Origin: a virus
Taxonomy: Duplodnaviria; Caudoviricetes
IMG/VR virus record: IMGVR_UViG_3300037258_000171
Coordinates: 927-64,926 of that record
Length of the DNA stretch: 64,000 nucleotides
Reading direction: 5' to 3' (one strand)
Shown here piece after piece: positions 35,971 through 64,000 of the stretch (its first letter is position 1; each line of letters begins with the position of its first letter). The position numbers were made by a program, and so were the translations under genes. Under the pieces are notes generated by a model. It worked only from the letters and a program-made list of their open reading frames with translations. It ran no database searches and was not told where the DNA came from.

Positions 35971-36219
35971 TCAGAACTCGCGATGACCCTCCAGGCCCTG
36001 GAGTGCCCCGGCGGGCGGCAGGCTGTCGTCGCGGTGATGCTGCTCGATATGCCGGCGGCGGCCCTCAACCGCCTCAGCGCGATCGCGGTAGAACTCGCTG
36101 TCCACGTTGCCGTTGCACTCCGGGTGCTGGCAGATCACCTCATACACGCGCTGGACGCTCACCATCGACGCCCGGAACTTCTCGGGCGCGGGCCTGGGCT
36201 CCCATCCGCGCCGGCTCAC
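35971..36219 (-). CDS. hypothetical zinc-finger-like protein
   Basis: CQHPEC...HIEQHH; GTGA-coupled to the excisionase. Confidence 0.5.
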   Translation of the reverse strand: MSRRGWEPRPAPEKFRASMVSVQRVYEVICQHPECNGNVDSEFYRDRAEAVEGRRRHIEQHHRDDSLPPAGALQGLEGHREF

Positions 36220-36500: not shown

Positions 36501-36565
36501 ACCGAAACCGTAGCACACCTAAAGTGCACGCGGGTCAACATCAGACTGATGTAGGCTTCACCGGT
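36501..36565. promoter_or_regulatory. divergent promoters for xis and repressor, probably leaderless
   Basis: TGC-TACGGT 6 nt before the xis GTG (- strand); TAGGCT 8 nt before the repressor ATG (+ strand). Confidence 0.55.
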
Positions 36566-37015
36566 ATGGCAGAGGATCCGTTGCTGATGGCCGATACCTG
36601 GCTCATCCGCAACATCAAGCAGGAGCGCGAAGCGCGCGGACTGTCCCAGGGGGCGCTCGCTGCCCAGATGCACGACCTCGGATTCAAGTTCGCGCAGCAG
36701 ACCATCGGCCGCATCGAGAAGGGCCAGCGGACCGTCAGCGGCGGCGAGGCCCTGGCCTTCGCCCGGCTGTTCGGGCGGGAGCTGAACGACCTGTTCCAGG
36801 CGCCCGACGTGACGAAGTACCAGGCCGACCTGCGGCACAAGACGCGGAACCTGCAGGAGACCGAGGCGTACGCCAACGGCGCGATGATCAGCCACCAGAC
36901 GGCCGCCGCCGAGCTCAGCAGCCTCGTCGCAGACCTCCGGGCCGGTCCGCACGCCGCGGCTCTGGCCGAGGAGCTGGACGCCGCCGAGAAGGCACTCAAG
37001 GGAGGGCGGCCATGA
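36566..37015 (+). CDS. XRE-family immunity repressor
   Basis: IKQEREARGLSQGALAAQM...QQTIGRIEKGQR; co-transcribed with the integrase. Confidence 0.85.
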   Translation: MAEDPLLMADTWLIRNIKQEREARGLSQGALAAQMHDLGFKFAQQTIGRIEKGQRTVSGGEALAFARLFGRELNDLFQAPDVTKYQADLRHKTRNLQETEAYANGAMISHQTAAAELSSLVADLRAGPHAAALAEELDAAEKALKGGRP

Positions 37016-43793: not shown

Positions 43794-45770
43794 TCAGGCC
43801 TCCCTGACGTTCAGCGGGTGATCGTCCTTGAAGCTCAGCGACAGGCCGCAGGTGCTGCAAGAGCCGCCGTAGTCAACGGTGACGACCCCATCGGTCGCGC
43901 CGTAGATCTCGTAGTCCTCGCGGAAGGTCCGGTAGTCCTCCGGATCTACTTCCTTGATCTGGCTCCGGGCCCGGTCGAATTCCTCAACCGGCACGGTGCC
44001 GTAGGTGGCCATGACATCCGCGAGGCGGGAGTCGTGGTCGCGCGTGGCGCGGGTGACGCAGCGGGGGCAGATAGCCCAGTTGCTAGCGCTCATCGGTCTA
44101 GCTCTCCTTGGTGTCGGGGTTGTGGTCGGCCGGAAGTTTCACGTGCTCGCCCGCGCGGATGCAGTCACGGTCGGGGCACTCATCCGCAGGCCCGAGGCGG
44201 TGAAAGTCGCCATAGGTGCCGTCGCGCAGGTCCGCTACCGTCCACTCCGGGCCGATCGTCCCGTGGCCGGTGATGCCGTCAACGGCGACGATCCGGCGCC
44301 CGGTGTCGATCCGGACGGCAGTCAGGCCGGGGATCTCGATGGTCAGCACGCCATCGGTGAGCTTGATCTTGCTCATCGGGTGGTCTCCTTGGTGTCGGGG
44401 TTGTGGTCGGCCGGCATGCGCACAGCCTCATCAGGCAGCGGCAGCGGCTGGCGCTTCGTCCAGCCAGCGCCGACGACGGGCTTGCAGTCGATGTCGGCCC
44501 ATGACCCGTCGCGGGCAGTGCGCAGGACGGTAATCACGGAGCCCATCCAGATGAAGCGGTCGCCCTTGGCGTAGGTCGTGGCGCTCATCGGTCTTACTCG
44601 CTCTCGGAAGGGTGGTCGGGCGGGAAGCAGGCCGGGCAGGTATCGGCGTCCAGGTCGGTCGCATGGGTGTGCGACTGAAGCGCGGCAATGGCGCGTTCCG
44701 CTTCCTCGCGGGTCATCGGCACGAATGGATCACCGGCCTCCAGTACGAGCACGAAACGACCGTTCCGGAAACAGGTCTTGACGACAGCCACGTACCAGAA
44801 GTCGTCCTTGACCTGGATGACGGCCTTCTTGGACTCGTGGAGGTTCGCTCCCAGGACTCCACCGAGATCCATCGCGTCAATTAGCGCCTCGCGGAGTTCT
44901 CCGACACTCAGCCAACTCGCGGTCTCGCTCATCTGTCTTACTCGCTCTCTGAGGTTTGGTCGGGGCGCAGGATGGCGGCGATGGCCTCGATCTCCTCCAG
45001 CGGCAGCGAGTGCCCGTAGTCCAGCCGCAGCCCGTGCTCGTGAAGAACGCCTAGGGCGGCTGTTCTCCGCGCCTGCCTGGCGGCTTCGTCCAGCGTCAGG
45101 AATGACTGGTGCCCGTACTGGTCGTTAGCCGCGCCGCCGTCAATGCGGAAGGCCTTCGGCTCGCGGCTGCCGGGGTAGTCGATGTAGACCAGCGTCCGGC
45201 CGACCCTCGTGATCGTGCCGGCCCATCCGCCGTGCGGCTGGCCGCGACGCCGGGCGTTCACGTCGAACACGCGGACCTCCTGGCCCACGGTCAGCTTCTC
45301 GGTCATTGCTCAGCCTCCAGTCCGGGGTTGCGTGCAGCGGCAGTGACCGTCACCGCCGGCGCAGAAGGGAATCAGCACGGCTCCCCGGTCGAGAGCGGCA
45401 ACCTCGCGAGGCGTCGGGTGCTCCCACCACTGATGCAGGCATCCGGAGCAGCGCTGGCCCGGGGTTAGGAGTGCGGTGCTCATCGGCCAGCCGCCGCCTT
45501 CTCGTTCATGGCCCGGAGCACGCGGGTGATCGCGTCCATGCCCATCCCGTTTACGCCGCCCTGCGCGAAAGCAGTGGCGGCCTTGGGGTTGCGGGTGGCC
45601 CAGGAGATGATGCGGGCGCCCATCGCCAGCTTGTCGGCCAGGTCGAAGCACTCATCCAGCGTGACCTCGTTCTCGCTGAGGAAGTGCAGCGCCAGCGGGT
45701 CCTCGCCGTTCTCCAGCGCGTCGGCTGCCTTGTCCAGCAGGTCTGCCATGCGGCTCATGTCGTGCTCCAT
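43794..45770 (-). CDS. run of small hypothetical genes (43794-44093, 44098-44376, 44373-44588, 44594-44932, 44938-45306, 45310-45483, 45480-45770)
   Basis: Tiled ORFs with SDs, several separated by conserved junction repeats. Confidence 0.65.
44103..44414. repeat. 31-bp perfect direct repeat (44103-44133 and 44384-44414)
   Basis: tctccttggtgtcggggttgtggtcggccgg; encodes PADHNPDTKE and contains the SD. Confidence 0.95.
44583..44949. repeat. 23-bp direct repeat with 1 mismatch (44583-44605 and 44927-44949)
   Basis: gctcatc(g/t)gtcttactcgctctc spans the stop, SD and next start codon. Confidence 0.9.
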
Positions 45771-46871: not shown

Positions 46872-48062
46872 TCACTGCCACCACTCCCCGTCGTCTGCCA
46901 GCCGCTTCTCCAGCGCCGCCCTCAGCTCCCTGAGCCGCAGGCACTTCGGCCCGGTCACCCATCCGGCGTGCGAGTCTCCTGCCACCTTCCACAGGTACGC
47001 GGTCCACGCCCCGTTCCTCGTGTCCCGGTCGTCCCACCACGTCAGCGCGTGGCCGACCTCCACGCCCTTTACCCGCACGCGGCGGTTGCCTGGCTCGACT
47101 GGCGAGAGCACGAGACCGGCCCTCATCGCGGCACCGGTACAGGCCGCAGAACCGGCCGGGGCCGGGCCACCTCGCGGGCTTTACGGACGATGGCGTCTCG
47201 CAAAGCGCGGGACTTCGCCCCGATGAGCGCGGCCACGTTCCGCCGCTTCTTCCGCCTCCACCACCAGATGGCCAGTGCGACTAACGCGCTGAGGGAGCAG
47301 CCGGCAAGCCACCACCAGTCCTGGTCGAACAGGCAGCTGATGCCGCCTCCAGCGCAGCCAGAGATCCAGCTGGTGATGACGTTGATCCGGAAGCCGAAGA
47401 GCCGGCCGATGCTTCGCCACATGCTCGCCGCCACCGGGGCCAGCAGAAGGCCCAGCAGGAAGTTCAGCAGCATGCCGCTCACCTCGGTCTCCGGTACCCC
47501 GCAGGACGGCGAGCCTTCAGCTCCCGCACCGGCCGGAAGTGCTGCTCGATCAGCCGTGCCGCGTACGCATCCGCCAGCGCCCCGGCCTCTGCCAGCTGCG
47601 ACGGTGAAGCTCCGGGGAACACCCGCTCCAGGCCTGCTGCCAGAGGGTGGCGCTCAGGGAGGGCGAACAGCGGCTCGGTCAGGTGGGCGGTCACGGCTTG
47701 ACCTCCGGAAGGCAGACCTGGCGCAGGCGCTCCATGTCGTGATGCGCGCACTTGGCATCAATCTCAGGATCGGGATAGTCCTCCTTGCAGGTGCACAGCC
47801 CGAACGTGTAGCAGTCGTCAGCGGTGTCCTGCGGCAGCAGGACGACATGGCCGGCCTCGCATTCCACCCGCCATGTCCATGTCATGGCTGACGTGACGTT
47901 CGCGAGCTTGTCCAGCGTGTCGGACAGGTACAGGGCCGAGCCTGACGACCAGACGATGTGCAAGGGCTCGCCGCAGCCTGCGAGCACGCACAGGGCCTCC
48001 GCGTAGCTGGATGCTCCTGCCGAAATCTGCCCGCTTGCCGCTGAGGCGCGAGGGCCGGTCAC
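46872..48062 (-). CDS. four small coupled genes (46872-47126, 47123-47482 membrane protein, 47479-47694, 47691-48062 Cys-rich)
   Basis: ATGA/GTGA couplings; 47123-47482 has 3 hydrophobic segments. Confidence 0.55.
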
Positions 48063-48598
48063 GGCGTCTCCCCGGCCAGCAGGTCAGCGAACGGGTAGTC
48101 GGCGATCGAGGACCCGCCGACACTGGCATAACGGGCGCCATAGCCGATGGCCAGCTGGCGGATGCGCTCCCGCTCGGCGGTGGCTGCCTGTGCGACCTGC
48201 TGGCGCAGCTCGTCGCGCTCGGCCGTGGTCGCTTTGCAGGCGCCGTCCATCAGGTCGTATCCGAGTTGCAGGCCGGCTAGCAGGCTGCGCAGGTCGTCGC
48301 GTTCGTGGACCAGCTCGGCGACCTGGCGGCGGAGGGCGGCAGTGTAGCAGCCGGCGCCCATCTGCTCGGCCAGCTGAGCGCATGCCTCCCGCTCATCCGC
48401 TGCCGCCTTGAGCAGCAGCTGCCCGATGAACAACTCGGCCGTCGTCAGGCCGAGGCACGGCTGCCCGCGCTCGGACGGCGTCCTGGACGCTGCGTAGTAC
48501 CGGCGCACGGCTGCGAAGATCGCGGTCACCTTGCGCTGCGCGGTCGGCTCAGCGGCCAGCCAGTCCGGCTCGGCCATCATCTCGTTCTCCGCGCTCAT
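48059..48598 (-). CDS. hypothetical coiled-coil protein
   Basis: Coupled; C-terminus shared with 48595..48993. Confidence 0.65.
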   Translation of the reverse strand: MSAENEMMAEPDWLAAEPTAQRKVTAIFAAVRRYYAASRTPSERGQPCLGLTTAELFIGQLLLKAAADEREACAQLAEQMGAGCYTAALRRQVAELVHERDDLRSLLAGLQLGYDLMDGACKATTAERDELRQQVAQAATAERERIRQLAIGYGARYASVGGSSIADYPFADLLAGETP

Positions 48599-48993
48599 GG
48601 CGTCTCCCCGGTCAGCAGGTCAGCGAACGGGTAGGCGAACTCGTGGCCCCAGCACGCCTCGTGGTCAATGGCCAGCTGGCGTATGCGCTCCCGCTCGGCA
48701 GCGACGGCCTCAGCTACCACGGCCTCGATTTCCGGCGGCGGTGTGCCGTGCCCGCTGGTAGCCCACCTGTGCGGCAGGCCAAGGTGCTTGCGGATCTCCA
48801 GGGCCAGGTCGTGGGCGCGGCGTGCCTGCGGGGCGATGGTGTGGGTCCAGGGCGACAGGTCGGGTGCGTCGGTGAAGGGCTTGGTGAGGTACGGGCTGGC
48901 GGCGATCAGCCGGAGTGCCGTGCTGTGCAGGGCGTCCTCGGCTCGTTCGAGCAACTCGCGCTCGGGTGTCATCCCGGTCTCGGTGTCGCTCAC
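48595..48993 (-). CDS. hypothetical protein
   Basis: Coupled; AERERIRQLAI...YPFADLLTGETP. Confidence 0.65.
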   Translation of the reverse strand: MSDTETGMTPERELLERAEDALHSTALRLIAASPYLTKPFTDAPDLSPWTHTIAPQARRAHDLALEIRKHLGLPHRWATSGHGTPPPEIEAVVAEAVAAERERIRQLAIDHEACWGHEFAYPFADLLTGETP

Positions 48994-49445: not shown

Positions 49446-52438
49446 GGCTTCGCCTCCGGTGCCGCCATACGGTCGATCTCGGCGGCGATGAGCGCGCCGG
49501 CCTTGACCAGCTGACGGCGGATGGTTGATCGCTTGCAGCGCCACTGCGGAGGCCAGCAGCCGGGGTCCAGGCCGATGGTGTCGGCGGCGTACCAGATGGC
49601 AGCGCGCGTCAGTGCGCGGTCCTCGTGCCCGGCGTCGTGCCCGGCGGTGTAGCCCTCTTCCGCGATCTGGCGCCGACGTTCGGCGGCGATCAGCGCGGCA
49701 CCGTCGTTGCGGGGGTCGCGCAGGCCCGCTATCTCGGCGTCCCGCTCGGCCATCAGCGCCTCAGCCTTCTCTGCCCGCTCATCAGCCGACCGGCATGAAT
49801 CCAGCAGCCGGGCACATGCGCCGCAGCTCGTGTTCCAGGTGATCCGGTTCTCGTAGTCGGCAATGGTGGCGCGCAGGGATTCAAGCTCAGCGTCCTTACG
49901 GGCGATCAGCTCCCGCAGTTCCCCGGAGGCATGCAGGTCAGCCGCAGATCCTGTGCGCTCCTGTACCTCGCACTCGGCGATCGTGAACGACTGCGGCAGG
50001 CACATCCGAACTCCGTCTGCCTGCTCGATGATGACGCCGGGGTCGGAGTGCATGGCGATGAGCTGGCCGGACCAGGATGAGCCGTGGACCGGGTTAGTCA
50101 CCGTGACCCATGCGCGCCGGGAGAGCAGGGCGTCCAGGTCGGCATCACTCACCGGCCACCTCCGCGGTCCGGTCCAGCCATTCCGTCGCGGACTCCGTGC
50201 CGTTCCACTGGTCAGCCGGGTCGTTGTCGTCCACGTCCGGGATGGCGTTCAGGATCCACTCCATGGCCTTCCCGGCGCCGTTCTGCCGCATCTCGATCTG
50301 CGCCGCCCGCATGGTCCGGGACATGTGCGTCACCGTCCGGCCGAGTTCCCTGCCGCCGGAGCGCAGCCGCTCCAGTTCGGTTCGCTCCGGCGCCTCGTCG
50401 GACCCCGCAGCCTCGTAGGACGCCACGCGCACCTCATCGGCCAGCGGGTAGATGCCGGCCCCGTCAGCCTCCAGCGCCGCCCAGTCGCCCGGGGGAAGCC
50501 ACATCCACGCCGCGGACTTCTGCACCCACACGTTCAGGGCGCCCTGCTGAGTGTCGGCCGGGACAGGCTTGCCGCTGTGCTCGGCGATGAGCAGCCGGGC
50601 CCTCTCGCTGCCGTCCCAGCGGATCATCTCCACCAGGGCCGGCCTCTTGCGGAAGCGCCGGATCGCGCCGGGGGTCTTGTCAGGCACGGGGAGCCTCCGT
50701 AACGGCCGCTCGCAGTTCGGCGGCCAGCCGGTCCATCAGGTTCGCTTCCTTGTGGCCGCGGGCCAGCATCGCCAGAGCGTTACTGTCGCCGGCGAACTCG
50801 ACGCGCATCTGCCGGGACTCGGTTTCCCACTTCTCAGCGAGGGCCAGCAGCCCGGCCGTGGCGTCACTCACCGCCGGCCTCCGCATCTGGCGTCACGTCC
50901 GCGTTAAGCGCCGCGCCGTCGCCGTTGGTCAGGATGTCGTCCGCCTTGCACGCCAGGCGGGCTGCGACCTCATGGCCGAACTCCCGCTCAGCGACAGCCA
51001 GGACCGCAGCGAGCGCGTAGGAATAGTTCGCGGCCATGAGCGCGCCGGCCCACGCATCGCCCTGCGGCGTGCCGGGCTTCCATTCGCGGTAGGAGTGCGA
51101 GACATCGTGCTGCCGGCCGGACTCATGGACCAGGTCGCGGCGGAAGTCGGTCACCGAGCCGCTGTAGATCGTGTCGGTCATCTAGGGTTCCCTTCGGGGG
51201 TTGTTCCCGCCGCCCGCCCGGCCCCTGTAGGCGGGCGGGCGGCGGATGCTTACTGGTTGAGTTCAAGATCAGGCAGCAGGTTCTCCACGGCCTTCGCCAG
51301 CGGGACCAGTTCCGCCCACGCCTCATCCAGGGCGGACCATGCGTCCTTCAGTTCCTCGTCGCCCTCGGGCATCCACCCGGCCGTGATGCCGTAGTCCAGG
51401 GCATCCACCACCTCGCCGCCCTGAGCGTCGATGCGAGCCGCCAGCGCCGCGCGGCTGGAGAAGATGCAGGGGAAGCGCCCCTCGGTCATGCCGCTCTCCC
51501 TTTCCGCGCCTCAGCGCAGTACTTCGTGTGGGAGTCCCACCAGTCCAGGAAGGCCCACTGGTCGGGCAGGGAAGGGTGGCCAGTGCCGCAGGCCTGGCAG
51601 CGGTGCGACCAGTACGGGTCCATCAGGCGGCCCACCCCTGCTCGCGCTCGGCCTTGTCGCGGTAGGCCCTGGCCTCATCGCAGGCGATGCCCCAGCTGCT
51701 GCCCGGCGTCGTGATGTGCGTCTTGGCCGTCCACCAGTGCGGGCTCTCGTTGCCGTCGCTCCACGGCGGCGCCTTGTGGATCTCGTAGCGCTCGCCCGGC
51801 CCGATTACCTGGCGGCAGCGGGAGCAGCGGTGCTCCTTGCGCGCGGTGCGGATGATGAGCGGGACCGCGGGCTTGTAGTCGCTCATCGCGGCAGCCCCAT
51901 CACGTGGCGCTCCCACGGGCCGACGAAGGTATCCAGCGACTGGTCCGGGCGGATCAGCCCGAACGGCGTGCCGCACTGGCAGCGGCCCGGCAGTTCCTCG
52001 TCGCCGAACTCGACCACCAGGGCGTGGCCGCCCTCCCATGTGGCGGGGAAGTCTTCCTCCACCGTTGCTGTCGCTCGCTGAGTACGGGTCATGACTGCAC
52101 TTCCGTTCCCGCTGGCTCCGGGTACAGCGGAGCCGACTCGATTGCTGTCTTGCATGGGGGGCAGAGGATTCCGCCCGGCCCTGGCTTCGCGGTGCCGCAC
52201 TTGGCGCAGAGCCGCTGAGGCTTCGGGGTCTCGTTGTCGCTCACGCAGCACCGTCCATCTCGTCATCCAGGGCACTCGCCAGGAACGTGGTCGTCCACCG
52301 GTAGCCGCACTCGCGGCAGCGGTAGTAGGCCCGGATCGCCTCCGGGAACTGGGGCTCGGTCAGGTACGGGGTCGCGGTGACGGACCGCTCGGCGATCACG
52401 CACTCGCCGCAGTTGTCGGGGCGGGCGGTCGCCTTCAC
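49442..52438 (-). CDS. run of small coupled hypothetical genes (49442-50152, 50145-50687, 50680-50871, 50864-51181, 51250-51489, 51486-51623, 51623-51886, 51883-52092, 52089-52244, 52241-52438)
   Basis: Tiled overlapping starts and stops. 49442-50152 has IAAERRRQI...HD...LVKAGALIAAEIDR, a common phage family. Several contain CxxC pairs. Confidence 0.6.
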
Positions 52439-53793
52439 TGCGCCCACTTCCCGGACGCACTCCAGGCCGCCGGCGCCATGTCCACGATTCGCGAGTGCTG
52501 GCCCTGGAATGCCTCAGTGATGGTCGTGAGCGGGCCGTTGCGGTTCTTGGCGACGATCAGGTCAATCTCGCCCGCGCGAGGGGATTCCCGCTCGTGCATG
52601 TCCTCGCGGTAGAGCAGGATCACGCGGACGGCATCCTGGGCCAGGCGCCCGGTGTCGCGGAGATCTTCCAGCGTGGGCTTGTGAGCGGGGCGCCGCTTGA
52701 GCTGGTGCAGGCCGACCAGCGGGATATCGAACTCGCGGGCCATGCCCTGGAAGCCGGCGGAGATGGCCGCGATAGCTAGCTGGTAGCTCTCGGCCTTCGG
52801 GACGCTGAGCAGGCCCATGTGATCGATGACGGCCAGGGCGGCCGGATCGCCGGCGCGTTCCATCTGGCGGAGCCGGGTCCGGATGTGCGACTGCGGCACC
52901 ATGGGCGTGTCATCGATGCGCAGCGGGGCTGCGGCGATCGGCTCGGCCTGGGCCACCGCGCGGGCCAGCTCCTCGTCGGACAGGGTGCCGTCCAGCAGCC
53001 GGGACAGGTTCACCCGTGCCTCGGCGCTGATCAGCCGGGCCATGCACAGATCGGCCGACATCTCGCCGGTCCAGTAGTAGACCGGCCTCCCGAGCCGCAG
53101 CGCGACATGCGCGGCCAGGTTCAGCCCGAGCACCGACTTGCCGACTGACGTGTCCGCCGCGACGATGTCGAACTCGCCATTGTCGAGCGAGAACACGCAG
53201 TCCAGGTCCGTCAGGCCGGTCGTCATCCCGCGCCGCTCGCCGCGCTCGGCGGCGTTGATCACGTCCCAGAAGATTTCCTCTGCGGACCGGGTCTTCTCCG
53301 GGGCGACCCCGGAGACCGCATCCGTCATCTCGGCTGTCGCGCGGTCCGCGATCTCACCCGCCGTCCCGTCACCCTGGTACCCGAGCTGGATAGCCCGCGT
53401 GGCTGCCTCGATGACCCGGCGTCGCACGGCGTGCTCGCGGACTATGCGGGCGTAGTAGCCGGCGTTGGCAGCGGTCGGCACGGCCTCGATCAGCGTGTGC
53501 AGGTACGGGTAGCCGCCCGTCCGGACGATGTCGCCCCGGCGCGTCAGCTCGGCCGCGATCGTCACGGCGTCAACCGGGGCGCCGGCGTCCCGCATCTCCG
53601 ACGCGGCAGCGAACACGAGCTGGTGGGCCGGGCGATAGAAATCCCGCTCCTGGAGAATGCCCAGCACGTCGTCTATCGCGTCGCGCGACAGGAGCATCCC
53701 CCCGAGTGCGCTCTGCTCGGCAGCGATGTCGTGTGGCGGCGTCAGGTCGTCGCCGTCCGCGCGGGACCGGTCCGCCAGATCCGTGACGGTCAC
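52435..53793 (-). CDS. dnaB: DnaB-like replicative helicase
   Basis: PPHDIAAEQSALGGML, DFYRPAHQ, Walker A variant ADTSVGKS, GEMS, LHQLKR, AKNRNGP. Confidence 0.92.
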   Translation of the reverse strand: MTVTDLADRSRADGDDLTPPHDIAAEQSALGGMLLSRDAIDDVLGILQERDFYRPAHQLVFAAASEMRDAGAPVDAVTIAAELTRRGDIVRTGGYPYLHTLIEAVPTAANAGYYARIVREHAVRRRVIEAATRAIQLGYQGDGTAGEIADRATAEMTDAVSGVAPEKTRSAEEIFWDVINAAERGERRGMTTGLTDLDCVFSLDNGEFDIVAADTSVGKSVLGLNLAAHVALRLGRPVYYWTGEMSADLCMARLISAEARVNLSRLLDGTLSDEELARAVAQAEPIAAAPLRIDDTPMVPQSHIRTRLRQMERAGDPAALAVIDHMGLLSVPKAESYQLAIAAISAGFQGMAREFDIPLVGLHQLKRRPAHKPTLEDLRDTGRLAQDAVRVILLYREDMHERESPRAGEIDLIVAKNRNGPLTTITEAFQGQHSRIVDMAPAAWSASGKWAQ

Positions 53794-54512
53794 GCCGGCC
53801 ACCGCCGGTCGGCCCCGGTCATCGCCACGACCGTCCGGCACATCTCAGCGAGACGGCTAGCCGCCCGCTCCCCGATCTGCGGCGCGAGGTCACTGGCCGG
53901 CAAGTTGCTGGTGATGATCAGCGGCAGGCAGTTGGCGTAACGGTGATCAACAATCGAGTAGATGCGCTCCTGCGTCCATTCGGTGGCCTTCTCGGCGCCC
54001 ACGTCATCAAGCACCAGGAGCCTGGTGTGCTGGCAGTCACCGATTCGCAGCGTGCCGTCGTCGCCAGGCCGCAGCGAGTCGAGCAGGTCCGTCATCCGGG
54101 TGAACACCACGGAGGGGTGGCCCTTGCGGGCATCGTCGTACATCAGGGGCTCGCCGTCGTGCGGGCGCGTCCTGGTGGCCGCGCACCAGCGGGCCACCGC
54201 CTCCCACGCGGCGTGCGTCTTGCCGGTGCCGACCTGTCCGGAGATGTACAGGCCCTCGGCCTGCTTGCCCTCCTGGAGCCAGGCATCGACACCGGCCGGG
54301 ACGTCGATGCGAGGCCGGAACCTCTTGGGTACGAAGCCCGTGATCTCGCGGCCGAGGCGGTCCTGCTCGCAGACCGGGCACCGGCCGGCGCGGTACGACG
54401 GCTCGCCCGCGACGGTGATCTTCACGGACCCGTAGCCGTCACACTCGGCCGACTCGGCATCGGGGTAGGCGTCGAGCAGGTTGTCATGCCCCAGTAGGGC
54501 GGCGGAATCCAC
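53790..54512 (-). CDS. DnaC/IstB-like AAA+ helicase loader
   Basis: GQVGTGKT, LLVLDDVG, IITSN, SRLAEM, GADRR; GTG 54512 with GAGGAG SD. Confidence 0.9.
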   Translation of the reverse strand: MDSAALLGHDNLLDAYPDAESAECDGYGSVKITVAGEPSYRAGRCPVCEQDRLGREITGFVPKRFRPRIDVPAGVDAWLQEGKQAEGLYISGQVGTGKTHAAWEAVARWCAATRTRPHDGEPLMYDDARKGHPSVVFTRMTDLLDSLRPGDDGTLRIGDCQHTRLLVLDDVGAEKATEWTQERIYSIVDHRYANCLPLIITSNLPASDLAPQIGERAASRLAEMCRTVVAMTGADRRWPA

Positions 54513-57917: not shown

Positions 57918-58132
57918 AGCCGCGCCTGAGCTTCCCGGTGCTCGCGCAGGGCGATGACCTCGGCGGCCAGGTAGCGGTACCGGATGTCGGCAGGCGAGAA
58001 GCTGATGACGCCCGCGTGGCGGAGCTGGGACAGGCGGGACGTGCCGATGTCCAGCAGGTCCGCTGCCTCGCCGGGCGTCATGAGGTCGTCAGGGTCCAGC
58101 AGGCGACCGCGGACCACGTACTGCCTAGCCAC
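57914..58132 (-). CDS. BldC/MerR/Xis-type wHTH protein
   Basis: LMTPGEAADLL...AGVI...RYLAAEVIAL. Confidence 0.65.
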   Translation of the reverse strand: MARQYVVRGRLLDPDDLMTPGEAADLLDIGTSRLSQLRHAGVISFSPADIRYRYLAAEVIALREHREAQARL

Positions 58133-58681
58133 GACCGCTCCCGTAGTCAGGCTCGGCCGGGGCGTAGCGGGCATCGCCGGCGAATAGCATGCCCACGAGC
58201 TCGTCCCACTCGCCGGGGGTCAGCGGCCTGCCATCGACGGGCAGGCCGGGCACCTTCAGGACGCGGGCTGCCGGATGGCGGGGGGCGCGGTCAAGGGTGC
58301 GCCTGCGGATGTCCTCGCGGGACTCCCGCCAGAAACCCCAGGCGATCCCGCCGATGATGGCAGCGATGATGGCCAGCGGGCCGAAGACCTGGGCGCTCAC
58401 GGCTGCACCGCTTCCATGTGCTTGCGCCACACCTGGATCGGCTCGTGCGACTCCCAGCGGGATCTGGTCTCCAGCGGCTCGTAGTGGCACGTCCCCCCGC
58501 CGACTGCGCCGGTCGCCCGGCAGGTGCAGCTCACGGAGATGCCGTTATTGCCGTTGAGATTCAGCCGGATCTGGTGCGGCAGCGAGTCGTCGCGCATGAC
58601 GTAGCGGTGGGCGGCCGTCGTGGTCTGCACCTCTCGCAGCGCCCCGGTCGCCAGGGCTGCGGCGAAGGATGCGGCGCTCAC
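58125..58681 (-). CDS. two small genes: a TM protein (58125-58400) and a hypothetical with SCTC (58397-58681)
   Basis: GTGA couplings. Confidence 0.55.
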
Positions 58682-59253
58682 GCGGCACCCCCGAGGTGCG
58701 GGCGCGGCGCGGTCAGGATGTTTCCGTCCTGGTCCACGTAGTGAGCGGCGTCGTCCAGCCAGACCTGGATGCCGCCGTCCGCCCCTGCCAGCAGGATGGC
58801 CACCAGCAGCGCGTCCTCGGTCGAGAGCAGCCAGAACCCGGCCTCGTGCATGTGCGGATCCCGGGACTCGGCCAGCCGGTGTGCCTCGCCCGACAGCAGG
58901 GCGCCGTTGGCGATGTTGTTGCGCAGCCTTGACCCCCCGGCGCGGCGGGCATTCCGGTGCTGAATCTCCCCGCCGTAGCGGCCGAGCCAGACCCCCGTCG
59001 CCTCGCAGCGGGCATCGTCTGGATCCCCGTTCCCGGCCCTGGTGCGGATGGCCAGCCTGGTGACGGCGCTGAACCCGGCGTCCCGGCGTGTCCTCGGCGG
59101 TGCTGTCCCCGGCCTCAGCTCCACGGCTGTGATGACGGGCCTGGACGCCACGGGAGGACGGAAGGGTGTCCTTGGGATGGGTGCGGACCGGGGGGGCATC
59201 GTGGTGAAGGCGTTCGCGCCGGGAGTGCGCCGGAGGCTGCCTGAGCGGTTCAT
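58678..59253 (-). CDS. degenerate HNH-like protein
   Basis: RCEATG...IQHRNARRAGGS...NGALLSGEAH; the zinc-binding cysteines are partly lost. Confidence 0.55.
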   Translation of the reverse strand: MNRSGSLRRTPGANAFTTMPPRSAPIPRTPFRPPVASRPVITAVELRPGTAPPRTRRDAGFSAVTRLAIRTRAGNGDPDDARCEATGVWLGRYGGEIQHRNARRAGGSRLRNNIANGALLSGEAHRLAESRDPHMHEAGFWLLSTEDALLVAILLAGADGGIQVWLDDAAHYVDQDGNILTAPRPHLGGAA

Positions 59254-59648
59254 CGCTGACCGCCCCACTGACCCCGGTAGGAGTCCCGCACTGAGGCACC
59301 GATGGACTGCTGGAAGCCGCCCTGCTTGCCGACGGTCCGCAGGTGATCCGAGGCTGCCTGCCGGGCCGCCCGGGCGAGCATCCATGCCAGTTCCTCATCG
59401 GCGCACTGATCCTCAGCCCAGGCGTCCCGCTCGGCGACGGTCCACTCGTTGCGGCGGACCTTCGGGCAGTCCGGCGACAGCAGCGCCCGGCGCTTGGCCG
59501 ACTTGAGCGCGGCCAGCGCGTCAACCTCCAGGTCGCGCTTGTCGGCCAGCGCCTGCCGGGCGTCCTCCAGTGCGTCCGAGAACGACTGGAGGGCAGCCTC
59601 GGCGCCGGGCGGTGTCTGCGGGTCGTGGCCCTGATGGGCGGCGCTCAC
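59250..59648 (-). CDS. helical recombination-module accessory protein
   Basis: TVAERDAWAE coiled coil directly after the annealase; coupled. Confidence 0.55.
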   Translation of the reverse strand: MSAAHQGHDPQTPPGAEAALQSFSDALEDARQALADKRDLEVDALAALKSAKRRALLSPDCPKVRRNEWTVAERDAWAEDQCADEELAWMLARAARQAASDHLRTVGKQGGFQQSIGASVRDSYRGQWGGQR

Positions 59649-60826
59649 CGCTGCTCGGCCTTGTCTGCGCGCTCGTCCTTGTAGGCGGTCCAGACCGCGG
59701 AGGCGGCAGCGTCAGCGTCGCCCCGGGCGGTCTCCAGCGCCTTCTCCAGGAGCTCGATGGACGCAGCGACCTCATCGGCGCTCATGTCGGCCAGGCGGCA
59801 GCCCTCGCGGCCGGTACGCCAGGCGATGAACTCCGAGATGTCATCGGCGGTCCCGAGCGGGATCTGGGTCAGCAGCTTGCCGAGCCTGGATGCACCGTTG
59901 CCGCCTCGCGCGGGTGCCGGATCGGCCTTCGCCGCGGACTCCTTCGCCTGCGGAGCCGCCGGAGCGGGGGCGGCAGGAGTCGCGGCCGGAGGAGCCTGCT
60001 GCCCGGTGATGTCGGCAGCGGTCAGCCGCTCGGTGGCGGACTCGAACTCGTCCTCCTTGCGGATCTCGCCGCGCTCCAGGCTCCGGTAGATGACGGTCAG
60101 CGTGGCCAGGTCGAACGAGGTCCACTTGTCGGCCGGGCTGCCGAGCTTCTGCACGAGCTGGCTCTCGATGACGCCGAACCGGGCGAAGCCGGCCAGGCAC
60201 TTGTCGCGCCGCTCGGCGATGTCGGAGTCGTCGCCCTCCAGGGTCCGGTAGCAGGCCGCCACCGCGTCCTCGGTGAACCAGCCCGGCAGGATCGCGAAGA
60301 TCATCTCCCGCAGGCGCCGGGCGCCCATGTTCGCGTTCAGCTCGTAGATGTCGCGGGTCTCGACCAGCTGCTTGGGGCCCTGCTTGGTGTCGCGGATGTG
60401 CGGCACGACGAACGTGGTGGAAGATCGGGTGTTGGTCTGGACGTCCCACGCCCACGCCTGCATCTCGGACTGGCCGTACTCGTCATCGCGGCGAAGCTCG
60501 GTGATGCCGTACTGCAGGTTGCCGAAGCAGCGGCCCAGTTCCCGGGCGAGCTGGACGGACGGCCCGGAGATCTGGCCGCCGCCGCGGCTGTAGCGGAAGA
60601 ACGCCTTCTCTGCGAGCGACTTCTGCGCGCACGAGCGCTGCATCTCGGTGACGGCGCGGTTCATGTCGCGCGGGTGGCGCAGTGCGACGACGATCGCGGC
60701 CTCGACTTCGGCGACTGCGCGGGACTGCTCGACGGCGGTTCCCTGGCCGACTCGCGAAGGCCCGGCGACGCGCGGCGTCATCTGCTGGTGGCCGTTCTGG
60801 ATCTGGTCAAGCGACGTGCTGGTCAT
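59645..60826 (-). CDS. RecT-like single-strand annealing protein
   Basis: EQSRAVAEV...PRD...YSRGGGQISGPSVQLARELG...WDVQTN...GARRLRE; paired with a RecE-like exonuclease. Confidence 0.7.
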   Translation of the reverse strand: MTSTSLDQIQNGHQQMTPRVAGPSRVGQGTAVEQSRAVAEVEAAIVVALRHPRDMNRAVTEMQRSCAQKSLAEKAFFRYSRGGGQISGPSVQLARELGRCFGNLQYGITELRRDDEYGQSEMQAWAWDVQTNTRSSTTFVVPHIRDTKQGPKQLVETRDIYELNANMGARRLREMIFAILPGWFTEDAVAACYRTLEGDDSDIAERRDKCLAGFARFGVIESQLVQKLGSPADKWTSFDLATLTVIYRSLERGEIRKEDEFESATERLTAADITGQQAPPAATPAAPAPAAPQAKESAAKADPAPARGGNGASRLGKLLTQIPLGTADDISEFIAWRTGREGCRLADMSADEVAASIELLEKALETARGDADAAASAVWTAYKDERADKAEQR

Positions 60827-61686
60827 GAATAGTCCCCCCTTGCCTGCGCCCACATGGGCAGGCGAATCTGTGCGACTTCGGATGTGTAGCCCGGCCAGAT
60901 CCCGGACTCCTCGCAGTCCCGGTAGATCTCCAGGGCGCGCTCGTTGTGCTCGCGTCCGGCGGCCTGCCCGTCTGGGTCCAGCTGGCAGGCGGTCACCAGG
61001 TACGGCGGTTCCTTCTCCTGGAAGATGAAGAGGAACGGCAGGCGCAGCCCCGTCAGCGCCTCGATGCCGTCCACGTACCAGGCGTCCTGCATGAAGTAGC
61101 GGAAGTTCCCCATCGAGCGGGCGATGGCGCCCGGGTCGGCTGACTGGCAGGTCTTGTAGTCAGCGAGGACGGGCATGGCGGCATCCAGGTCGGGCAGCCA
61201 GTCCACGCGGGACCGGCGCCAGATCCCCCAGCGCTGGTCCTCCCAGAACAGGGACTGCTCCGGGTGGCCGCCGCGCTCCGGGTCGAATACGACGCTGGCG
61301 ATGCGATGGGCGCGGATGGCCGCGGCCATCTCCTTCACCTGGTGATGCTCGACAGGCAGCAGCGGGACCTTCCCCTCCGCCCGAGCGGCCTTCGCCTGGT
61401 CCTTCGCGTCGTTCGTCCGCCAGCTGAGAGCGTCCACAACGGCTAGCTCGGCGCCCGTTCCGAGCACCAGCTTGTGCGCGGCGGTCCCGAGCTCCATCGC
61501 CGATGTCGGCGCCGGCGGGTGCTCGCGGTCGTAGGCGAACCTCGCCGGGCAGGATGGCGGCAGGAGTTTCTTGGCGCCGGAGACGGACAGGCTGCGACCG
61601 GGGACCGGGTCGGCGTGGTAGGCCGACTCGTCCAGGTCGTCGTAGATCCCGGCCTGGAAAACGGGTGCCTCCGCGAGCGCGGTCAT
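60823..61686 (-). CDS. RecE-like PD-(D/E)XK exonuclease (DUF3799-like)
   Basis: YHADP...LSVSGAK, LGTAAH, EQSLFW, RSRVDW, DYKT, YFMQDAWY. Confidence 0.9.
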   Translation of the reverse strand: MTALAEAPVFQAGIYDDLDESAYHADPVPGRSLSVSGAKKLLPPSCPARFAYDREHPPAPTSAMELGTAAHKLVLGTGAELAVVDALSWRTNDAKDQAKAARAEGKVPLLPVEHHQVKEMAAAIRAHRIASVVFDPERGGHPEQSLFWEDQRWGIWRRSRVDWLPDLDAAMPVLADYKTCQSADPGAIARSMGNFRYFMQDAWYVDGIEALTGLRLPFLFIFQEKEPPYLVTACQLDPDGQAAGREHNERALEIYRDCEESGIWPGYTSEVAQIRLPMWAQARGDYS

Positions 61687-62051
61687 GCCCGGTCACCGTG
61701 ATAGCGGTCGGTCCCCAGAACGAGATCGTCCTGAGCCGCCTGCAAGTCCTCCTCGTAGAAGCCGGGCCGGTCGCGGAAGTCGGCATCATCGCCGGCCCAG
61801 TTCGCCCAGCGCGTCATCTCGGCCACGTACTTGCCCCAGCGCTCCAGCGCCTCAGCAGGCGACAGCGACGGCGAGGACCAGGCGATGACCTGGACCTCAA
61901 CGACCTCCGGCACGGGCGGCACGTCAGGGCCGACGACGATGGCTGAGGCCAGTTCCTCCAGCAGCTCCCGGCGGCGGTTCTCCGGCAGCAGGCGCAGGGC
62001 CCGCAGGCAGGTGACCTCCGCTTGCCGGATGGCGGTGACGGTGGCGCTCAT
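61683..62051 (-). CDS. hypothetical protein
   Basis: Coupled on both sides. Confidence 0.55.
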   Translation of the reverse strand: MSATVTAIRQAEVTCLRALRLLPENRRRELLEELASAIVVGPDVPPVPEVVEVQVIAWSSPSLSPAEALERWGKYVAEMTRWANWAGDDADFRDRPGFYEEDLQAAQDDLVLGTDRYHGDRA

Positions 62052-62446
62052 AGCGACGCCTCCGCCGGGATGCTGGCCATCAGGTCGGCCATCTCGCGCT
62101 GGTAGGACTCGGCGGTGCGCTCTAGCTCGGCCTGCTTGTCAGCCACATCCCGGACCCTGATCGCCTCAGCTGCAGCGGTGATCGCGGCGAAAGCCTCAGC
62201 GACAAGGGGCGGGTAGGGCAGCAGGTCGGTGACCGGCACGTTGTAGAAGCCGGCCAGGATCCAGAGCCGCTCGACGGTGACCGCGCGGTCAGCTCTCTCG
62301 TGACTGCCGACGACGACGGCCTTGAGCCTGCCGCCGGACGCCGCCTCAACCTGGCTGAGCGACATCCCGGCGCGGTCCCTGACTGCGCGGAGTCGCCTGC
62401 CGAGTGCGAGCTCGAAGTCGCTCGGGTTGCTGGCAGCGGCGGTCAT
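62048..62446 (-). CDS. BldD-like XRE DNA-binding domain fused to a coiled coil
   Basis: LGRRLRAVR...GGRLKAVVVGSHERADRAVTVERL...FYNVPVTDLLP closely matches the BldD N-terminal domain as recalled. Confidence 0.85.
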   Translation of the reverse strand: MTAAASNPSDFELALGRRLRAVRDRAGMSLSQVEAASGGRLKAVVVGSHERADRAVTVERLWILAGFYNVPVTDLLPYPPLVAEAFAAITAAAEAIRVRDVADKQAELERTAESYQREMADLMASIPAEASL

Positions 62447-63866
62447 GACGCACCGCCTGCGGGCTGCTCGGCTTTCGCCGGGCGCTTCGGTGCCGGCTTG
62501 GACCACCGGATCGCGGCGGCGAAGGCGTAGCCCTTGCGCGTCCCGTGAACGGCGACCACGACCCCGGCGACGATGGCGGCGAGGACAACGACGCCGGTCA
62601 CCAGCGCGGCGACTGCGAGAGTGCTCACTTGCCTGCCTCCTCATCGGTCACGACCGGCACCAGCTCGGTTGGCGTGTCCGCTACGGGCATGACCTGCGTC
62701 TCGTCCGGCGCCTGCTTACCGCCGCCCCACCGGCTCAGTGATTCCTGCGCGGCCTTCTGTGCCGCATCAGCGTCGGCTGCCTCAGCGGCCAGCCGGTCGC
62801 GGGTCGCATCCGGGATCGGGCCGGTCGCCGGGACGATCTCCCCGCTGGCCGTGACGGGCTGCGACACGGGCGGTACCGGGGTGACGTGGACCGGGGGCAC
62901 GGGCCGGAAGTCCGGCGCCCTGTACTCGGCGTACAGCCACGGCAGGACGTACGACGCCGGGTCGGCCTTGCGTGCGGCGTAGACCTTCAGCTCGTCCTCG
63001 GTCGGCTCCCGGAACGCTGCCGGGTCGGCGAGGTAGGCGAACTGCTCCTCGTGGTCGGGGATGATCGACCAGCCGATGGCGGGGACGTCGGTGTCAGTGA
63101 CGCCGGCCCAGCCGCCGAAGATGGCGTGGGAGATGGTCGCGGTGCTCATGCGGCACTTCCCGACTGATGCGGGCAGCCGGCCAGCATCCCCTTGTAGACC
63201 TCGGCGCTGTAACGCGCGTGGGTCATCAGCTCCAGGCGCAGACCGGGAGTCGCCTGCATGGCCTTGGCGACCCCGCGCCAGTCATCGAAGAACGACCTCC
63301 AGGCCTGGTCCTCGGTCGGCGAGTAGCGCGCCATCGTGACGCCTCGCGGGCAGCCGCAGGGCGACCAGAGAACCCAGTCGCACTCGTTCAGCCGGACCTG
63401 CTTGCCGTTGATCTCGGCAGTCCTCGGGGCGGTCATCGCGCACTCTCCTGCCGCTCAAGCTCGGCAATGCGCTGGCGGGCGTCGTCAAGCTCGCTGCGCA
63501 GGATGCCGACCTCGCGCTTAAGTTCGCGGACGTCGCTCTCGACGTACTGCACGTCCCGCTCCAGGTCGGAGTGGGAGTGGCGGTCATCCGCGACGCCCTG
63601 AATGTCGCTGGCGTAGTGGTAGTGGTCGCTCACCGGGTCACCGCCGATCCGGCCAGGACGGGCCCAGCAGCCTTCGCCGCGAGGGCTTCCCGCTGCAGCG
63701 CCGCAGCCCTGGCGAACTCGGCGGCGAGCGAGTCGAGCTCGGCCGGGTCGCGGGACGAGATGGTGAAGCCGGGGCCCATCGGGATCTCCGTGAACGGGTG
63801 GGCCGGGTCGGCCTGGTTCACCCGGGCCACGGGCCTGGTGACCGGCGTATTCGCATATAGCCACAT
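62443..63866 (-). CDS. five small coupled genes (62443-62628 TM, 62625-63149, 63146-63436, 63433-63633, 63630-63866)
   Basis: ATGA/GTGA couplings. Confidence 0.6.
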
Positions 63867-64000
63867 CAGGCGACCCTCATCCCGCTGGAGCGCAGCAGCG
63901 TCACCAGGACGTCAGAGCGGGCGCAGACGGTGCCGCCGTGCCCGCTCCTGCACTCCAGGTAGGGGAGGCGCACCAGGGCGTTCTCGCCCCCGTCGCGGGC
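63866..64000 (-). CDS. 3' end of a gene truncated by the window edge
   Basis: ARDGGENALVRLPYLECRSGHGGTVCARSDVLVTLLRSSGMRVA*, TGATG-coupled to the next gene. Confidence 0.5.
   Translation of the reverse strand, partial: ARDGGENALVRLPYLECRSGHGGTVCARSDVLVTLLRSSGMRVA

Follow-up and report, generated by a model that had tools for sequence, protein, structure and literature searches.

Identification of P0001 in a phage early operon

We identified in the early operon of a phage a 132-residue protein, P0001, that carries the DNA-binding domain (DBD) type of BldD, which acts as the master repressor of sporulation in Streptomyces and similar bacteria. Sequence and model comparisons show that the C-terminal domain (CTD) of BldD and its RXD-X8-RXXD signature are lost in P0001, with a single long predicted helix in their place. 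The best explanation of the data as a whole, which we put forward tentatively, is that P0001 is a c-di-GMP-independent, early phage BldD-type factor that represses host developmental genes.

P0001 is encoded on the minus strand at positions 62048 to 62446 of the window, by which we mean the whole 64,000-nucleotide stretch analyzed (bases 927 to 64926 of a 64,926-nucleotide IMG/VR virus record). The record contains genes for a major head protein, a tape measure protein, an endolysin, a tyrosine integrase, an exonuclease, and a DnaB-like helicase. The preliminary description of this DNA had called the gene phage encoded, which is borne out by the presence in the record of genes for the capsid, tape measure, endolysin, and integrase. 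The phage is, judging by its integrase gene, temperate. The CheckV completeness of the record is 69% and the promoter of the P0001 operon lies off the contig, so operators of the phage could be missing from it. Searches of the window found no tRNA and no WhiB-type cysteine pattern, the pattern by which other developmental-regulator homologues were sought.

The P0001 gene is supported by its translation, a high-GC3 coding frame, and ATGA overlaps of its start with the preceding gene and of its stop with the next gene. The preceding gene in the ORF list (62443 to 62628, minus strand) encodes a 61-residue hydrophobic, membrane-like protein with no Pfam or PHROG match, and the next gene (61683 to 62051, minus strand) encodes a 122-residue protein with no PHROG, Pfam, or usable Atlas match. 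Two further upstream operon genes on the same strand, at 62625 to 63149 and 63146 to 63436, are joined by 4-nt overlaps and are without family matches. Also on the minus strand are an exonuclease gene at 60823 to 61686 (phrog_412, exonuclease VIII, 1.4e-89) and a gene at 59645 to 60853 that matches phrog_3657 (8.5e-97), annotated "unknown function"; we take this pair (59645 to 61686) to be a RecE/RecT-type module. A recombination-gene tblastn search had its top matches in phages of Rhodococcus, Gordonia, and Mycobacterium. These matches lie next to exonuclease genes, and in two of the phages the matching gene is annotated as an ssDNA binding protein. P0001 is translationally coupled on both sides in this leftward early operon, which adjoins the recombination genes.

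The gene also occurs in a second phage contig, L002, where it is 94.5% identical in nucleotide sequence, and the conservation sets in about 15 nt before the ATG, which supports this start codon. The codon changes between the two copies, 13 synonymous and 6 nonsynonymous, show purifying selection. The flanks in L002 have diverged and are about 79% identical or unalignable (62685 to 63163 aligns at 79.4%). L002 has a 68-residue hydrophobic ORF at the position of the 61-residue upstream gene and, after the BldD-like gene, a 141-residue ORF that shares its N terminus with the 122-residue downstream protein.

The phage also has a lysogeny module (36216 to 38391) that is separate from P0001 and 25 kb away. 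It comprises an HTH_17 gene on the minus strand at 36216 to 36518 (Pfam HTH_17, 8.9e-9), a divergent plus-strand gene for a 163-residue HTH_3 protein at 36524 to 37015 (Pfam HTH_3, 2.4e-9), and the tyrosine integrase gene on the plus strand at 37012 to 38391 (phrog_1 integrase, 4.5e-58). The 163-residue HTH_3 protein had no BldD-model match at an E value of ≤0.001.

A BldD-type N-terminal domain

A PDB search aligned residues 9 to 77 of P0001 (62216 to 62422, minus strand) to residues 3 to 71 of BldD chain 2ewt_A (2EWT/4OB4) with an E value of 7.8e-19 (71.3 bits), versus 0.012 (19.2 bits) for the runner-up solved XRE protein, DdrOC. NF050110, the BldD model, was the top NCBIfam match over the DBD at 96.2 bits versus 18.5 for the second model; this score falls well short of the 250-bit cutoff for the whole protein, against which the positive control P0039 scored 293 bits. 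Pfam HTH_3 (PF01381) matched residues 19 to 75 at 25.4 bits, above its gathering threshold of 23. Foldseek placed the AlphaFold2 model of P0001 (pLDDT 85.3) on 4OB4 and 2EWT with an rmsd of 0.5 Å over 68 to 69 columns and 60 to 61% identity, and the second-ranked fold, C.BclI, had 20% identity. A generic XRE repressor had been named beforehand as the alternative to a BldD identity, and these sequence and model comparisons confirm a BldD-type domain as opposed to a generic XRE one. The stretch quoted earlier as residues of about 12 to 79 exists in P0001 as residues 15 to 77, and the Streptomyces BldD sequence given with it agrees with chain 2ewt_A.

P0001 keeps 32 of the 38 DBD positions that are near-invariant (≥90%) in canonical BldD and changes the other 6 (Q25R, Q26A, L28M, W41L, Y49H, and G52A in P0001 numbering); all 102 of 102 canonical sequences have Tyr where P0001 has His49. 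Over the helix-turn/recognition stretch, 18 of 21 residues equal the canonical consensus; canonical sequences themselves have a median of 20 and a 5th percentile of 16. The median DBD identity of P0001 was 62% to the 102 canonical BldDs, a comparison flattered by the choice of that set as the best matches to the query, versus 45 to 58% to the proteins that share its tail (tail-mates). The DBDs of published BldD orthologues are 95 to 100% identical, with essentially invariant DNA-contact residues, according to PMC4151990, and P0001 stands at about 60%. The conserved contact residues in Figure S7 of that paper could bear on the six substitutions. A DBD tree built on 71 columns left 82 of 140 inner branches open, so nesting of the phage gene inside canonical BldD cannot be read from it; the tail-mates did not form one clade in this tree.

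A predicted helix in place of the c-di-GMP-binding domain

The c-di-GMP signature of BldD is a bipartite RXD-X8-RXXD motif, as described in PMC4151990. A regular-expression search for it had no match in P0001, while 38 of 152 relatives have it. The preliminary description had noted an isolated R-V-R-D and the loss of the full motif, and both observations stand: R-V-R-D occurs alone at residues 97 to 100, and the Pfam BldD-like_C domain (PF21179) did not match P0001 at an E value of ≤1; P0130 does give a match to this domain with the same library. In a MAFFT alignment, the motif 1 Arg column (Arg in 102 of 102 canonical sequences) is Met in P0001, and the protein ends before motif 2.

The tail opens with a motif of the P-L-V-x3-F-x-A-I-T type at residues 80 to 90 (62177 to 62209, minus strand), recognized by regular expression and by an alignment of 13 proteins. 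AlphaFold2 predicts one long C-terminal helix of 45 residues, residues 81 to 125 (62072 to 62206, minus strand; DSSP assignment, block pLDDT 71 to 87), a putative dimerization element. A home-made heptad score of the P0001 tail was matched by 14 of 500 shuffles; among seven tails tested, the score was matched by at most 17 of 500 shuffles in five, and the signal was absent in two. The homodimer prediction scored 0.16 against a mark of 0.42, a value that counts neither for nor against binding. The earlier proposal that a coiled coil had replaced the c-di-GMP domain is sustained as to one long, partly heptad-like predicted helix, and the term coiled coil itself is reasonable but unproven.

We also considered that the tail is a degenerate remnant of the BldD CTD. 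An NCBIfam match does reach profile position 116, and MAFFT aligns a few residues. We rejected the idea on a comparison of a tail-only profile with the CTD profile of the 102 canonical sequences (hhalign probability 0.33%, E = 0.18) and on the relatives, whose matches to the model stop at about position 80.

Relatives of P0001

The BldD-type DBD was found in 323 cluster representatives at an E value of ≤1e-10. Among 152 proteins examined, 38 have the c-di-GMP motif, 13 have the tail motif, and 101, many of them fragment-like, have neither. We define the tail-motif subfamily as proteins with a BldD-type DBD, a P-L-V-x3-F-x-A-I motif immediately behind it, and then a helical tail of 35 to 60 residues; P0001 fits this definition and has 12 fellow members, 10 of which are rare metagenomic proteins. 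Across the 13 sequences, L81, F86, and A88 are invariant and P80, V82, and I89 are present in at least 90%. The match of members to the BldD model is confined to profile positions 2 to about 83, and the recognition stretch of the 11 members other than P0001 and the near-identical P0002 keeps 12 to 16 of 21 residues. One tail-mate form is a fusion with an RNA polymerase alpha C-terminal domain. The tail-mate clusters are known from metagenomes only and hold one to five sequences, with 8 of the 10 being singletons. Every sequence comes from a single contig, none longer than 12.8 kb; the contig of tail-mate P0005 has 7,959 nt and that of P0044 has 12,807 nt. An Atlas search with the tail gave nothing informative.

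Scans of IMG/VR returned only L002 and three distant proteins. The latter are BldD-type DBD proteins on three more viral contigs, one of them encoded by a gene flanked by a Mu Gam-like gene and one for a DNA polymerase processivity factor. Species-representative genomes, scanned twice, yielded no relative, and a metagenome scan gave 80 loci; 72 of these have the full motif, and the other 8 are BldDs that are truncated or near-canonical. A search of 50,697 isolated phage genomes found no homologue; its best match, not significant (E = 0.9), was the annotated immunity repressor of Mycobacterium phage Sparky. The literature that we searched yielded no description of a phage-encoded BldD homologue.

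BldD boxes and operator-like sites on the phage

The BldD box is TNAC-N5-GTNA. The phage has 5 exact boxes versus 4.5 expected, and 110 sites with one mismatch versus 117.7 expected. The phage genome is thus not enriched for BldD boxes, which leaves no case for phage-internal BldD-box targets. Three of the five exact boxes (6882, 28279, and 32509) lie in intergenic gaps, which make up 21.6% of the window; by our own binomial estimate (about 0.07), this is not significant. A de novo search for operator-like repeats and palindromes found nothing tied to the P0001 gene and no palindrome family in the intergenic gaps. An unrelated triple site is present at 32638 to 32726. A scan of 58000 to 64000 for the sigma-70-type consensus only found no promoter-like site.

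Possible roles of P0001

We propose that P0001 may be an early-expressed phage transcription factor with a BldD-type XRE DBD (residues 9 to 77) and a single amphipathic helix (residues 81 to 125). The helix would make P0001 a constitutive dimer and so stand in for the c-di-GMP tetramer of BldD, and the dimer would bind DNA at any host c-di-GMP level. The almost canonical recognition stretch would guide it to host chromosomal sites that resemble the BldD box, and developmental and sporulation genes would stay repressed in infection, leaving the mycelium vegetative and susceptible. BldD activity is described as wholly dependent on c-di-GMP-mediated dimerization; the DBDs alone associate only at 10 μM or above, and c-di-GMP bridges the CTDs (PMC4151990). 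PMC10117723 reports that Streptomyces phage infection is contained by sporulation, that plaques are smaller and resistant cells regrow faster with a hypersporulating bldD mutant, and that plaques are large and clear with a bldN mutant locked in vegetative growth.

For a role on the host chromosome we count the BldD-type DBD with the CTD and motif lost, the long predicted helix with its heptad-like pattern in five of seven tails, the higher DBD identity to canonical BldDs than to the tail-mates, purifying selection on the gene, the published link between sporulation and phage containment, the recognition stretch (18 of 21, within the canonical range), the coupled early-operon position away from the integrase and lysogeny switch, the distinct HTH_3/HTH_17/integrase switch elsewhere in the phage, the 94.5% identity of the gene in L002 despite diverged flanks, and the absence of BldD-box enrichment on the phage. 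Against it we count the change of 6 of 38 near-invariant DBD positions, including the Tyr of 102 of 102 canonical sequences, the DBD identity of about 60% versus 95 to 100% among published orthologues, the choice of the canonical set as best matches to the query, the recognition helix that varies in the other members of the subfamily, the open DBD tree, the incompleteness of the record, and the heptad signal missing in two of seven tails. That P0001 is a c-di-GMP-independent BldD that keeps the host vegetative is plausible but unproven, as is the control of host development or secondary metabolism that the preliminary description put forward.

Regulation of the phage's own genes is nearly as likely. 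P0001 would then be a small XRE factor (Cro-like, CII-like, middle-switch-like, or an autoregulator) with operators on the phage, having the ancestry of BldD but not its targets, and we regard this as a serious possibility, a little short of the one that we prefer. Small XRE proteins are the rule in temperate-phage early operons, and the spread of the BldD-type DBD over many architectures (38, 13, and 101 of 152, as above) and over three other viral contigs with more distant proteins points the same way. So do the six altered near-invariant positions and the recognition-helix residues that differ among the tail-mates, as is usual for phage regulators that have operators of their own. However, we found on the phage no repeated BldD-box-type operator and, apart from the unrelated triple site, no intergenic palindrome family; P0001 retains 18 of the 21 recognition-stretch residues of canonical BldD, and a conventional divergent switch is already present at the integrase.

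A dominant-negative or competing role is improbable. P0001 would form nonproductive mixed dimers with BldD through the DBD-DBD surface, or would occupy boxes without repressing, and development would be derepressed, for instance to carry a new prophage into spores. The temperate nature of the phage fits this, as does the conserved C-terminal end of the DBD, in which F67, Y68, V70, P71, L75, L76, and P77 are all kept and which in BldD makes a weak DBD-DBD contact of <300 Å2 (PMC4151990). Poisoning by way of so weak an interface would need high concentrations, however, and derepression in lytic growth would be costly since sporulation limits phage spread (PMC10117723). The gene also sits within a lytic early operon with recombination genes.

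A prophage immunity repressor encoded in the leftward-reading right arm, at a distance from a centrally placed integrase as in the cluster A mycobacteriophages, is similarly unlikely: the layout resembles that of L5 (rightward structural genes, an integrase in the middle, and a leftward right arm), and the top, nonsignificant phage match is the Sparky immunity repressor, but P0001, coupled on both sides, has no intergenic gap and no sigma-70-type promoter-like site ahead of it, it is not at the switch, where the 163-residue HTH_3 gene, divergent from the HTH_17 gene and overlapping the integrase start, takes the classical repressor position, and neither an operator family nor stoperator-like repeated sites were found.

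BldD-(c-di-GMP) tops the Streptomyces developmental and antibiotic-production network, and a BldD DBD with its sensor swapped for a fixed helix would offer a natural test of whether tethering alone suffices for BldD function. If P0001 does repress host developmental genes, it is a candidate phage countermeasure to developmental escape. More speculatively, the captured DNA-binding half and a constitutive dimerization helix might make it a c-di-GMP-blind BldD, an early viral measure that blocks containment by sporulation and aerial growth, and the tail-mates might be signal-uncoupled developmental regulators on mobile elements; we consider this broader picture possible but doubtful. P0001 could also be used to hold actinomycetes in the vegetative state or to free antibiotic clusters from c-di-GMP control. 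If it regulates phage genes only, the BldD-type domain is still a mobile module beyond the canonical regulator.

Comparison with known systems

P0001 shares with BldD an XRE-type DBD (60 to 61% identity, 0.5 Å), including the unusual turn that precedes the recognition helix in both. It differs from BldD in having no C-terminal beta-alpha-alpha domain and no RXD-X8-RXXD motif, in its length (132 versus about 167 residues), in its phage-borne, early-operon setting, and in the change of the invariant Tyr to His. SinR of Bacillus subtilis consists of an XRE DBD and a C-terminal helical oligomerization domain. P0001, known from sequence and a model, is built in like manner, with an XRE DBD of about 70 residues and then a short helical tail with a putative role in oligomerization, and the DNA-docking mode of BldD is reported to be SinR-like (PMC4151990). 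The SinR DBD (3qq6) is a weak fold match to P0001 (E = 0.019, 23% identity), the tails have no sequence relationship, and no SinI-like antagonist was identified for P0001.

With the CI/Cro-type repressors (lambda cI, P22 c2, and ImmR), P0001 has in common the HTH_3 fold (18 to 26% identity by Foldseek) and the phage context, but it resembles BldD much more closely than any of them and lies away from the integrase switch, where the HTH_3/HTH_17 pair is found. The actinophage WhiB-type and Lsr2-type regulators (PMC8612146) are like P0001 phage-borne homologues of a global or developmental transcription factor of the host. They belong to other families, and P0001 keeps only the DNA-binding half of its host counterpart, with the sensor half exchanged.

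Results

Translation of the minus-strand ORF at 62048-62446 gives P0001, a 132-amino-acid protein whose residues 9 to 77 matched the DNA-binding domain (DBD) of BldD (2EWT and 4OB4) at E=7.8e-19 and 71 bits in a phmmer search of the PDB; the next solved XRE protein reached E=0.012 and 19 bits. With the NCBIfam BldD equivalog model P0001 scored 96 bits; the second-best family reached 18.5. An AlphaFold2 model (mean pLDDT 85.3, from a 13-sequence alignment) superimposed on 4OB4 and 2EWT at 0.5 Å with 60 to 61% identity, and the next fold matches had 20 to 30% identity. As a control, the 163-aa HTH_3 protein encoded near the integrase of the same phage had no match to the BldD model at E≤0.001. 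These results identify the N-terminal domain as BldD-type rather than generically XRE, which bears out the BldD-like N terminus claimed in the preliminary description. The grouping with generic XRE proteins, the main one of the refuting results that it had named, was not found, since BldD lies far ahead of the other XRE proteins.

The sensor half of BldD is missing from P0001. Its 96 bits are far under the 250-bit cut-off of the BldD model (the canonical control P0039 scored 293), the Pfam BldD-like_C model, which does detect the positive control P0130, had no match in P0001, and a pattern search for the c-di-GMP signature RXD-X8-RXXD found none. Having failed three tests of defining features, P0001 falls outside the curated BldD family, and the claimed loss of the c-di-GMP domain and motif holds. 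After the DBD, the model has one helix, residues 81 to 125. The observation behind the proposed BldD mimic is thus confirmed and its structure, a BldD DBD with the sensor half gone, is supported, with the coiled coil it described being a predicted single helix. A home-made heptad score for this 45-residue helix was equaled by 14 of 500 shuffles; among seven tails tested, five were at or below 17 of 500 and two were above. We rejected a decayed BldD C-terminal domain as the source of the tail, since a profile of the tail alone, compared with one of 102 canonical C-terminal domains, gave a probability of 0.33% and E=0.18. The alignment of relatives to the BldD model only as far as about profile position 80 also argues against decay.

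We searched 1.84 billion cluster representatives exhaustively with HMMER; 1379 proteins passed E≤0.001, and 323 passed the stricter E≤1e-10. We examined 152 sequences: the best 150 (P0002 and P0003 among them), the query, and P0004. The c-di-GMP signature was present in 38, and 13 carried a motif of the type P-L-V-x3-F-x-A-I directly after the DBD, followed by a helical tail, with L81, F86, and A88 invariant. Neither feature occurred in 101 sequences, many of which resemble truncated or frameshifted BldDs, while some are other short DBD-plus-tail forms. Ten of the proteins sharing the tail motif (tail-mates) were looked up; all belong to metagenome-only clusters of 1 to 5 sequences (8 of 10 singletons), and none is in NCBI or UniRef. 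Each of these sequences was seen on a single contig, none longer than 12.8 kb. In the metagenomic tail-mate P0014 (217 aa), the BldD-type DBD is preceded by an RNA polymerase alpha C-terminal domain (PF03118, 1.3e-14), and the P0014 cluster holds five near-identical members.

We compared the DBD with those of 102 distinct motif-bearing BldDs (38 representatives and 72 metagenome loci, minus duplicates), a set biased by its choice among the best matches to P0001. P0001 kept 32 of the 38 positions conserved in at least 90% of this set, departing at Q25R, Q26A, L28M, W41L, Y49H, and G52A (P0001 numbering); position 49 is Tyr in all 102. Over the turn and recognition stretch (residues 37 to 57), 18 of the 21 residues of P0001 agreed with the canonical consensus. 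This count falls within the range of the canonical proteins themselves (median, 20; 5th percentile, 16) and exceeds the 12 to 16 of the 11 tail-mates left once the near-identical P0002 is set aside. DBD identity to canonical BldDs was 51 to 68% (median, 62%), and that to the tail-mates was lower, 45 to 58%. Canonical pairs had a median of 80%, and 9 of the 102 canonical proteins were as divergent as P0001 or more. In the part of Tschowri et al. (PMC4151990) available to us, the DBDs of BldD orthologues from sporulating actinomycetes are 95 to 100% identical, with DNA-contacting residues essentially invariant. This identity counts against a BldD-like DNA-binding surface in P0001. A maximum-likelihood tree of 71 DBD columns did not resolve the branching and therefore does not tell recent capture from old divergence.

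IMG/VR classes the source record (64,926 nt, of which the window is bases 927-64926) as a linear virus, and CheckV puts its completeness at 69%. PHROG and Pfam scans assigned a major head protein (5121-6515), a tape measure protein (14961-18845), an endolysin-like protein (30146-31015), a tyrosine integrase (37012-38391), a DnaB-like helicase (52435-53841), an IstB-like ATPase, a methyltransferase, and, on the minus strand, exonuclease VIII (60823-61686) and a phrog_3657 protein from a family annotated "unknown function" (59645-60853, or 60826 in a GC3-based call). We take the last two to be a RecE/RecT-type pair. The best relatives of the phrog_3657 protein (44 to 52% identity) are in Rhodococcus, Gordonia, and Mycobacterium phages, where they adjoin exonuclease genes and, in two phages, come under a gene annotated as ssDNA binding protein. 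Based on this gene content, a GC content of 69.4%, and a capsid protein with no close relative among isolated phages, the element is a novel temperate siphovirus-like actinophage. Two further genes, at 34333-35040 (RNA ligase, phrog_548) and 39361-40515 (RtcB tRNA-splicing ligase, phrog_1075, 8.4e-131), together suggest an RNA-repair set, possibly directed against host anticodon nucleases. Adjacent paralogous genes at 48059-48598 and 48595-48993 share stretches that are 84 to 91% identical (a local duplication, 48056-48718), and within 44103-44989 one 31-nt stretch recurs exactly (44103, 44384) and one leader-like repeat of 64 nt has copies at 44582 and 44926.

The P0001 gene is preceded by a 61-aa hydrophobic ORF (62443-62628), whose stop overlaps its ATG as ATGA, and the P0001 stop overlaps, again as ATGA, the ATG of a downstream 122-aa ORF (61683-62051). 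The GC3-based call places it within an unbroken series of minus-strand genes, each overlapping by 4 nt (63146-63436, 62625-63149, 62443-62628, 62048-62446, 61683-62051, 60823-61686, 59645-60826, and 59250-59648). A scan covering one promoter type found no sigma-70-like promoter in 58000-64000, where no intrinsic terminator was found either; the operon promoter lies past the contig end.

L002, a 4,227-nt IMG/VR contig, encodes a BldD-like protein 96% identical to P0001. The sole strong DNA match to the window is the P0001 gene (94.5% over 437 nt, 62025-62460); one neighboring gene is 79% identical (aligned region within 62025-63163), and the remainder of L002 did not align at E≤1e-10. Gene order is retained: a homologue of 62625-63149 comes first, then an additional gene, a short hydrophobic ORF, and the BldD-like gene itself, after which lies a homologue of 61683-62051. 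Next is a different 437-aa protein, with a P-loop-type motif seen by eye in the translation, where the window has its exonuclease and phrog_3657 genes. The two copies of the P0001 gene differ at 19 codons, 13 synonymously and 6 nonsynonymously. The gene is therefore under purifying selection, and it moves as a mosaic module.

Among phages the protein is rare. A tblastn search of 50,697 isolated phage genomes gave no P0001 match at E≤1e-5 and, at E≤1, three nonsignificant phage records (best E=0.4). When 2.9 million IMG/VR contigs were scanned by pattern, L002 came up together with three remoter BldD-type proteins (BldD-model scores of 68, 55, and 29 bits), and species-representative genomes, scanned twice, yielded no relative of the tail-defined subfamily. 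The 68-bit protein (122 aa; L086, a 72,418-nt contig, 3427-3795) has its BldD-type DBD encoded at a locus of 48% GC, and so this type of domain seems to extend beyond high-GC actinophages. The gene for another of the three, a 121-aa protein with a BldD-type DBD (L088, a 90,316-nt contig, 5905-6270), immediately follows a Mu Gam-like end-protection gene and precedes one for a DNA polymerase processivity factor, an early, DNA-metabolism setting like that of the P0001 gene. An annotated 221-aa HTH regulator (L085, 5001-5666) with 45.6% identity to P0001 residues 1 to 76 (E=4e-9) is encoded on plasmid 2 of Variovorax sp. PBS-H4 (NZ_LR594676.1); that record is linear, 117 kb long, and assigned to a betaproteobacterium. 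An unannotated match to residues 8 to 77 (61% identity) in NZ_LT559118.1, an 11.85-Mb Nonomuraea gerenzanensis replicon filed as a plasmid, is probably the canonical bldD of that species.

Discussion

According to the part of PMC4151990 available to us, BldD DBDs associate weakly (at least 10 μM; interface of <300 Å2), and c-di-GMP tethers two C-terminal domains so that the DBDs dimerize on DNA. Because c-di-GMP acts by tethering, a DBD on any stable dimerizing helix should bind without it. The tail helix of P0001 could be such a tether, in which case its DBDs would dimerize and bind DNA without c-di-GMP, and P0001 may work like a signal-free BldD although it is outside the curated family. In the portion of PMC10117723 that we could consult, Streptomyces phage plaques are contained by sporulation and aerial growth; on a hypersporulating bldD mutant the plaques were smaller and resistant cells grew back faster, and the plaques on a vegetative-locked bldN mutant were large and clear. 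Since sporulation and aerial growth contain plaques, an early, signal-blind BldD would plausibly benefit the phage. A c-di-GMP-independent BldD acting on the host, which would recognize BldD boxes at host targets and produce a developmental phenotype, is thus a plausible function that we propose tentatively.

Nearly as likely is a regulator internal to the phage that shares only common ancestry with BldD. The BldD box is TNAC-N5-GTNA (PMC4151990, in part). A scan for these boxes, proposed in the preliminary description, showed no enrichment in the window, either for exact boxes (5 versus 4.5 expected) or with one mismatch (110 versus 117.7). Repeat and palindrome searches of the window, from a possibly incomplete record, found no operator family tied to the P0001 gene. 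A palindrome unrelated to the BldD box, GTCCGG-N4-CCGGAC, occurs three times (starts at 32638, 32675, and 32711; 32638-32726; spacing of 36 to 37 nt) where gene 32690-33184 ends and in the adjoining gap, a layout that resembles an operator array. That P0001 is an immunity repressor is improbable: the phage has a classical lysogeny module, made up of an HTH_17 gene (36216-36518), the divergent 163-aa HTH_3 gene (36524-37015), and the integrase gene, whose start the HTH_3 gene overlaps, and no intergenic space belongs to the P0001 gene. We also consider it unlikely that P0001, with its BldD-type DBD, acts as a dominant-negative protein.

Returning to the c-di-GMP-independent BldD, we found no report of a phage-encoded BldD homologue in the literature searched. 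The nearest published concept is that of WhiB- and Lsr2-type regulators encoded by phages (PMC8612146, in the part available), and we group P0001 with this already known kind, the phage-borne homologues of host global regulators.
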